Shown piece by piece: positions 5,601 to 7,279 of a stretch of 7,279 nucleotides of DNA. The DNA lies in the IMG/VR virus record IMGVR_UViG_2740892369_000004. The stretch is one strand, 5' to 3'. Within the stretch, counting starts at the first letter, position 1; each line of letters starts with the position of its first letter. Source of the DNA: a virus. Taxonomy: Duplodnaviria; Heunggongvirae; Uroviricota; Caudoviricetes. The position numbers are program-made.

Positions 5601-7279
5601 GGATGTTTATGACGAGCAAAGAAACCTTTACCCATTACCAGCCGCTGGGCAACAGTGACCCGGCTCATACCGCAACCGCGCCCGGCGGATTGAGTGCGAA
5701 AGCGTCTGCAATGACCCCGCTGATGCTGGACACCGCCACCCGTAAGCTGGTTGCGTGGGATGGCACCACCGACGGTGCTGCCGTTGGCATTCTTGCGGTT
5801 GCTGCTGACCAGACCAGCACCACGCTGACGTTCTACAAGTCCGGCACGTTCCGTTATGAGGATGTGCTCTGGCCGGAGGCTGCCAGCGACGAGACGAAAA
5901 AACGGACCGCGTTTGCCGGAACGGCAATCAGCATCGTTTAACCTTACCCTTCATCACTAAAGGCCGCCTGTGCGGCTTTTTTTACGGGATTTTTTTATGT
6001 CGATGTACACAACCGCCCAGCTGCTGGCGGCAAATGAGCAGAAATTTAAGTTTGATCCGCTGTTTCTGCGTCTCTTTTTCCGTGAGAGCTATCCCTTCAC
6101 CACGGAGAAAGTCTATCTCTCACAAATTCCGGGACTGGTAAACATGGCGCTGTACGTTTCGCCGATTGTTTCCGGTGAGGTTATCCGTTCCCGTGGCGGC
6201 TCCACCTCTGAATTTACGCCGGGATATGTCAAGCCGAAGCATGAGGTGAATCCGCAGATGACCCTGCGTCGCCTGCCGGATGAAGATCCGCAGAATCTGG
6301 CGGACCCGGCTTACCGCCGCCGTCGCATCATCATGCAGAACATGCGTGACGAAGAGCTGGCCATTGCCCAGGTCGAAGAGATGCAGGCAGTTTCTGCCGT
6401 GCTTAAGGGCAAATACACCATGACCGGTGAAGCCTTTGATCCGGTTGAGGTGGATATGGGCCGCAGTGCGGCAAACAACATCACACAGTCCGGTGGCACG
6501 GAGTGGAGCAAGCGTGACAAGTCCACGTATGACCCGACCGACGATATCGAAGCCTACGCGCTGAACGCCAGCGGCGTGGTGAATATCATCGTGTTTGATC
6601 CGAAAGGATGGGCGCTGTTCCGTTCCTTCAAAGCCGTCAGGGATAAGCTGGATACCCGTCGCGGCTCTCATTCCGAGCTGGAGACAGCGGTAAAAGACCT
6701 GGGCAAAGCGGTGTCTTATAAGGGAATGTATGGCGATGTGGCCATCGTCGTGTATTCCGGACAGTACGTGGAAAACGGCGTCAAAAAGAACTTCCTGCCG
6801 GACAACACGATGGTGCTGGGGAACACTCAGGCACGCGGTCTGCGTACCTATGGCTGTATTCAGGATGCGGACGCACAGCGCGAAGGCATTAACGCCTCTG
6901 CCCGTTACCCGAAAAACTGGGTGACTACCGGCGATCCGGCGCGAGAGTTCACCATGATTCAGTCAGCACCGCTGCGTCGAAAACGCGGCGATGTTGCAGG
7001 ATAAACCAGTACTTATCTTCTCGCTGGAGATGCCTTCAGAACAGATTATGATGCGTTCTCTGGCGTCGCTGTCGCGCGTTGACCAGACGAAAATCCGTAC
7101 CGGGCAGCTCGATGATGAAGACTGGGCGCGCATTTCCGGCACCATGGGTATTTTGCTCGAAAAACGCAATATCTATATCGATGACTCCGCCGGCCTGACG
7201 CCAACGGAAGTGCGTTCCCGCGCACGCCGTATTGCCCGTGAACACGGCGGCATCGGGCTTATCATGATCGACTACCTGC

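Follow-up and report, generated by a model that had tools for sequence, protein, structure and literature searches.

Does a lambda-type prophage of Escherichia coli encode a major capsid protein with a foreign C-terminus, or does the deposited sequence join two pieces of DNA that are not adjacent in the organism? The question is raised by gene E in the window analyzed here (the whole stretch of DNA under study, 7,279 nt long), where the reading frame leaves the phage gene and enters the helicase gene dnaB. The initial annotation, made from this sequence without database searches, had described the replacement of the native C-terminal residues by nine foreign ones and had proposed that the highly basic new tail is likely to impair or abolish capsid assembly. 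An exact look-up of the encoded 335-aa protein identified the window as the entire 7,279-bp contig JHEW01000102.1 of GCA_000695115.1, a 2014 draft assembly of strain 97-3250; JHEW01000000 is the draft genome of the STEC O26:H11 strain 97-3250 (PMC7649339). The same-strain comparison employed two mutually independent finished genomes, NZ_CP027599 (97-3250) and NZ_CP074773 (97_3250), both of which were produced later and from other stocks of the strain than the 2014 draft.

The window represents a lambda-type head module, with the gene order Nu1-A-W-B-C/Nu3-D-E (Table 1); gene E is preceded by Nu1-A-W-B-C-D, as in lambda, and is followed on the contig by dnaB DNA, not by FI. Up to position 6974, the sequence is that of the strain itself, with 0 mismatches to NZ_CP027599 and 0 to NZ_CP074773; seven complete-genome records produce the top-score match to this part of the window, and three positions differ from LC645429. 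The left end of the contig is not chimeric, given that the match to the finished genome is 100% starting at base 1. Codon 51 of gene A (window 723-725) is an in-frame TGA, which corresponds to TGG (Trp) in lambda and in LC645429, the only further O26 Stx1a phage record included in the base-by-base comparison. The same TGA is found in both finished 97-3250 genomes, where the gene is annotated as a pseudogene (‘internal stop’), and, beyond this strain, in a few other complete genomes; being common to the contig and both finished genomes, this codon ties the draft contig to their lineage. Because of the nonsense codon in the large terminase gene, the Stx1a-type prophage of the 97-3250 lineage is, judging from the sequence, probably packaging-defective.

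Two landmarks lie outside the window. A lambda-type cohesive-end sequence, GGGCGGCGACCT, is located 126 nt upstream of the contig start (this cos 12-mer occupies positions 1364-1375 of locus L007, in which window position 1 is position 1501), and the left end of the contig is thus close to a landmark common to lambdoid prophages. An IS600 element (IS3 family) separates the lysis genes of the prophage from its Rha/Nu1 region (positions 591-1747 of locus L001, NZ_CP027599).

Table 1. Coordinates of the features in the 7,279-nt window.
Feature	Position	Strand	Description
Nu1	53-598		
A (large terminase)	573-2498		
D	5609-5941		
Chimeric E ORF	5997-7004	+	335 codons + TAA; annotated as KDM69357.1 / WP_044165368.1, ‘major capsid protein’
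Native part of E	5997-6974	+	codons 1-326; 0 mismatches to both finished 97-3250 genomes
Foreign codons and stop	6975-7004	+	nine codons, RRKRGDVAG, and stop TAA at 7002-7004; wrong-frame dnaB DNA
Junction	6974-6975	no strand	three-way comparison; BLAST breakpoints at query 275/276
dnaB fragment	6975-7279	+	nt 732-1036 of 1416; 303/305 identity with dnaB from many E. coli genomes
T>G vs the strain’s own dnaB	7089	+	dnaB nt 846; synonymous
T>G vs the strain’s own dnaB	7189	+	dnaB nt 946; Ser316Ala; DDSSGL -> DDSAGL

As a reading of the deposited sequence, the initial annotation was accurate down to the coordinates. The E ORF starts with the ATG at 5997 and comprises 336 codons counting the stop, so that the product consists of 335 aa versus 341 aa in WP_000063258.1, the native major capsid protein encoded by this prophage. 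Residues 1-326 of the chimeric protein are identical to those of WP_000063258.1, and the domain Phage_cap_E (PF03864) is on record for the 335-aa product; the native allele, in turn, aligns with lambda gpE (PDB 7VI9) across residues 1-341 (E = 1.4e-226). From position 6975 onward, the E frame reads CGT CGA AAA CGC GGC GAT GTT GCA GGA TAA, that is, RRKRGDVAG followed by a stop, and the frame offset by +1 reads DnaB (VENAAMLQDKPVLIF..., approximately DnaB residues 245-345, with one substitution), which bears out the claim that nine codons of helicase DNA are read in the wrong frame. Alignment with the native allele places the divergence point precisely, with identity extending through residue 326. 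What is lost beyond this point is the native tail of 15 residues (327-341), MLLADPDEFVSVQLA, which is identical in lambda gpE (PDB 7VI9); this conserved C-terminal segment is absent from the deposited ORF and present in the finished 97-3250 genomes.

The structure of the junction was examined by a three-way comparison of the window with the native prophage and with E. coli dnaB. The switch falls exactly between positions 6974 and 6975: the sequence is that of the prophage gene E up to 6974 and that of dnaB, from nt 732 onward, starting at 6975. The junction is blunt, the next base in native E being A and the preceding base in dnaB being T, and this comparison detected neither microhomology (0 nt) nor an IS element at 6974/6975. 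The dnaB tail is an internal fragment that lacks both the start and the stop of the gene, is preceded by phage E DNA and runs off the contig end; the complete dnaB gene and its normal qorA-dnaB-alr context are absent from the contig, which contains nt 732-1036 only. The junction is thereby placed 305 nt from the end of the 7,279-nt contig, and the length of the dnaB tail is about that of one read.

The tail is identical to the dnaB gene of strain 97_3250 itself in 303 of the 305 positions, and both exceptions are T>G differences located downstream of the nine foreign codons. Compared to the finished genomes, the contig thus contains two mismatches in the 305-nt tail and none in the other 6,974 nt; for two differences placed randomly on the contig, the probability that both fall inside the last 305 nt is 0.0018. 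This contrast is an indirect hint that few reads, perhaps a single one, underlie the junction. The possibility that the two differences are natural polymorphisms of dnaB was examined: none of the complete E. coli genomes matches the tail above 303/305, and a 32-mer with the S316A change produced 0 matches in metagenome and species-representative genome collections, the latter being weak evidence from scans run without a positive control. The difference at 7189 is most simply explained as a read error, and we infer the same origin for both T>G differences.

Evidence on the status of the junction comes from the two separately finished 97-3250 genomes, from both of which it is absent. After the position equivalent to 6974, NZ_CP027599 and NZ_CP074773 read ATGCTGCTGGCTGAC... 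(ATGCTGCTGGCTGACCCTGATGAG...), which is the native continuation of E, and in both, an intact E gene of 1026 nt (WP_000063258.1) precedes FI, Z, U, and V. Accordingly, the notion of an altered capsid protein stands as a description of the deposited ORF, but not as a statement that a protein with the foreign tail is really made, given that the finished genomes encode intact E. The E gene of NZ_CP074773 occupies positions 2,561,389-2,562,414 on the plus strand. The dnaB locus was inspected in this one finished genome, where it is intact and occurs in a single context, encoding WP_000918363.1 (1416 nt; 5,543,697-5,545,112, minus strand) in the usual alr-dnaB-qorA neighborhood. The two genes are 2.98 Mb apart and on opposite strands, and when mapped on NZ_CP074773, the contig junction would link 2,562,366 (+) to 5,544,381 (-). 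With this arrangement, a real join would have to be of the inversion type, with dnaB cut in two. The dnaB gene is essential, and therefore, a viable culture could be clonal for a chromosome carrying the junction only if an additional copy of dnaB were present.

In NZ_CP027599, the head-tail region is present twice, the copies being about 475 kb apart (L008, 2,544,263-2,561,762, and L001, 3,017,033-3,030,006); the two copies differ only by three homopolymer single-base deletions, as a result of which E, U, and V seem ‘frameshifted’. The deletions look like long-read polishing error, and the second copy is possibly a duplicated region of the assembly. NZ_CP074773 is 37.6 kb shorter than NZ_CP027599.

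Another line of evidence comes from searches of public data. Phage records and 5,426 complete genomes of E. coli were screened with a 580-nt query that includes the junction, at a threshold of at least 80% query coverage. The dnaB half of the query matched all 5,426 genomes, and the E half matched many genomes along with 80 phage records; neither these complete genomes nor the matched phage records contained a place that covered at least 80% of the query. Among the matches listed, each either stops at 6974 or begins at 6975. A 37-mer spanning the switch from E to dnaB had 0 exact matches in viral, metagenome, and species-representative genome collections, in scans that were run without a positive control, and the exact 335-aa protein was found on a single contig among approximately 15 billion proteins.

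We conclude, with a probability that we estimate at about 0.93, that the junction between E and dnaB at 6974/6975 is artefactual and reflects a chimeric read or a mis-join at a contig end of the 2014 draft assembly. The observations in favor of this conclusion include the following: the junction is missing from the independent finished assemblies of the same strain (NZ_CP027599 and NZ_CP074773); it lies near a contig end and connects distant loci without homology (305 nt from the end; 2.98 Mb between the loci; 0 nt shared); and it is not reproduced in the other public sequences searched, be it genomes, phage records, the 37-mer, or the protein. Under this scenario, the real contig would have stopped at about position 6974, inside gene E, and a chimeric template or read would then have added approximately one read length (305 nt) to the contig end. 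The chimera could have been generated by ligation in the library, within a single read, or through a mis-join by the assembler, the likeliest origin being either two sheared fragments that were joined by blunt ligation when the library was prepared or an assembler mis-join; blunt-end ligation of sheared fragments would yield a homology-free join exactly as seen. Automatic annotation would subsequently have followed the E frame across the junction up to the first stop, producing a 335-aa protein for which the organism has no gene.

Contigs from other assemblies provide a hint as to why the phage part may end where it does. In other draft assemblies, two E contigs terminate at the position equivalent to 6949 of the window and one at that equivalent to 6966, 8-25 nt upstream of the junction; the contig that ends at 6966 is 791 nt long, spans 6176-6966, and carries a 100% identical allele. 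This clustering of contig ends suggests a break point of the assembly graph near the junction. The finished 97-3250 records contain five places similar to the E region, and the ends of the three contigs suggest that a branch point near 6974 might be caused by co-resident lambda-like prophages. In addition, eight contigs of other E. coli drafts start at 6049-6051 (loci L009-L016 and L018-L020 comprise the whole set); these N-terminally truncated E contigs (P0006) are not informative with respect to an end at 6974. The fixed positions of contig ends within E indicate recurrent assembly break points that stem from near-identical E alleles of co-resident lambdoid prophages.

The principal alternative to an assembly artefact is that the junction was real in the 2014 culture, at least in a subpopulation, either as the result of insertion of a copy of a dnaB fragment into E by illegitimate recombination or in the form of a rare recombinant molecule. 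The junction is, after all, present in the deposited contig, and a blunt junction without microhomology can also come from illegitimate end joining. We nevertheless consider such an event unlikely. Neither finished genome of the strain carries the junction, dnaB is intact and single-context in NZ_CP074773, and a simple reciprocal event would have inverted 2.98 Mb and destroyed an essential gene. No further instance of the junction turned up in the genomes, phage records, and collections searched; the two differences between the tail and the strain’s own dnaB would not be expected of a recent duplication; and the tail is approximately one read long and sits at a contig end. Were the junction real after all, the prophage would encode a capsid protein with a basic foreign C-terminus that, going by its sequence, is probably assembly-defective.

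Even less plausible is an origin through aberrant excision of the kind that underlies specialised transduction, or from a contaminating laboratory clone of dnaB in lambda. Such constructs resemble the contig superficially, in that lambda-type DNA is joined to a host gene, but the phage part is that of the prophage resident in the strain, down to the TGA in gpA and with 0 mismatches, and its identity to laboratory lambda reaches no more than about 98%. Furthermore, dnaB is located 2.98 Mb from the prophage rather than next to its attachment site, the break lies inside the head gene E and not at an att-proximal end or in a cloning region, and the large terminase gene of the prophage is a pseudogene. 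The strain-specific phage part and the distance to dnaB contradict both a transducing phage and a lambda vector, and we regard this origin as highly improbable. Finally, the suggestion that RRKRGDVAG is an ordinary allele, one of the C-termini that occur naturally in lambda-family major capsid proteins, for which we found nothing beyond the plain label ‘major capsid protein’ in RefSeq and UniRef, has virtually no chance of being correct and is refuted by the native tails of the relatives (all aligned full-length members of the 90% cluster, as well as lambda gpE, end in MLLADPD[E/A]FVSVQLA, with a single E/A variation, and none has the RRKRGDVAG end that would mark it as natural), by the origin of the nine codons in out-of-frame dnaB DNA (303/305 identity over 6975-7279), and by the occurrence of the exact protein on one contig only.

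The junction and the 335-aa protein are thus almost certainly not real features of the organism, and their significance is a matter of database hygiene. The artefactual protein has been propagated to GenBank (KDM69357.1), RefSeq (WP_044165368.1), and UniRef100 (UPI00049EEC2F), where the entry could pass for a natural variant of the capsid protein or for a junction left by phage-host recombination. There is no biological news in the locus itself: the finished 97-3250 genomes encode a normal gpE-type protein of 341 aa. A real junction would amount to a private lesion, probably an inactivating one, of a prophage whose large terminase gene is already interrupted by a nonsense codon. The proposal that the basic tail impairs capsid assembly is reasonable in principle, as a prediction from the protein sequence, and loses its relevance if no such protein is produced.

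The comparison with known systems leads to the same assignment. With respect to lambda gpE (PDB 7VI9 and 7SJ5), the deposited protein is near-identical over residues 1-326, but the last 15 residues are replaced. Similarly, positions 1-6974 of the window are near-identical to the O26:H11 ST21 Stx1a-converting prophages (LC645429; PMC10042803), but the published records of these prophages carry the native 3' end of E. Relative to E. coli DnaB (WP_000918363.1), the tail is an internal, out-of-frame piece with one non-synonymous and one synonymous T>G difference. The feature as a whole resembles the chimeric contig ends of short-read or 454-era draft assemblies, such as library ligation chimeras and single-read extensions, which are likewise blunt, lie approximately one read from the contig end, connect distant loci on opposite strands, and show a raised number of mismatches in the tail.
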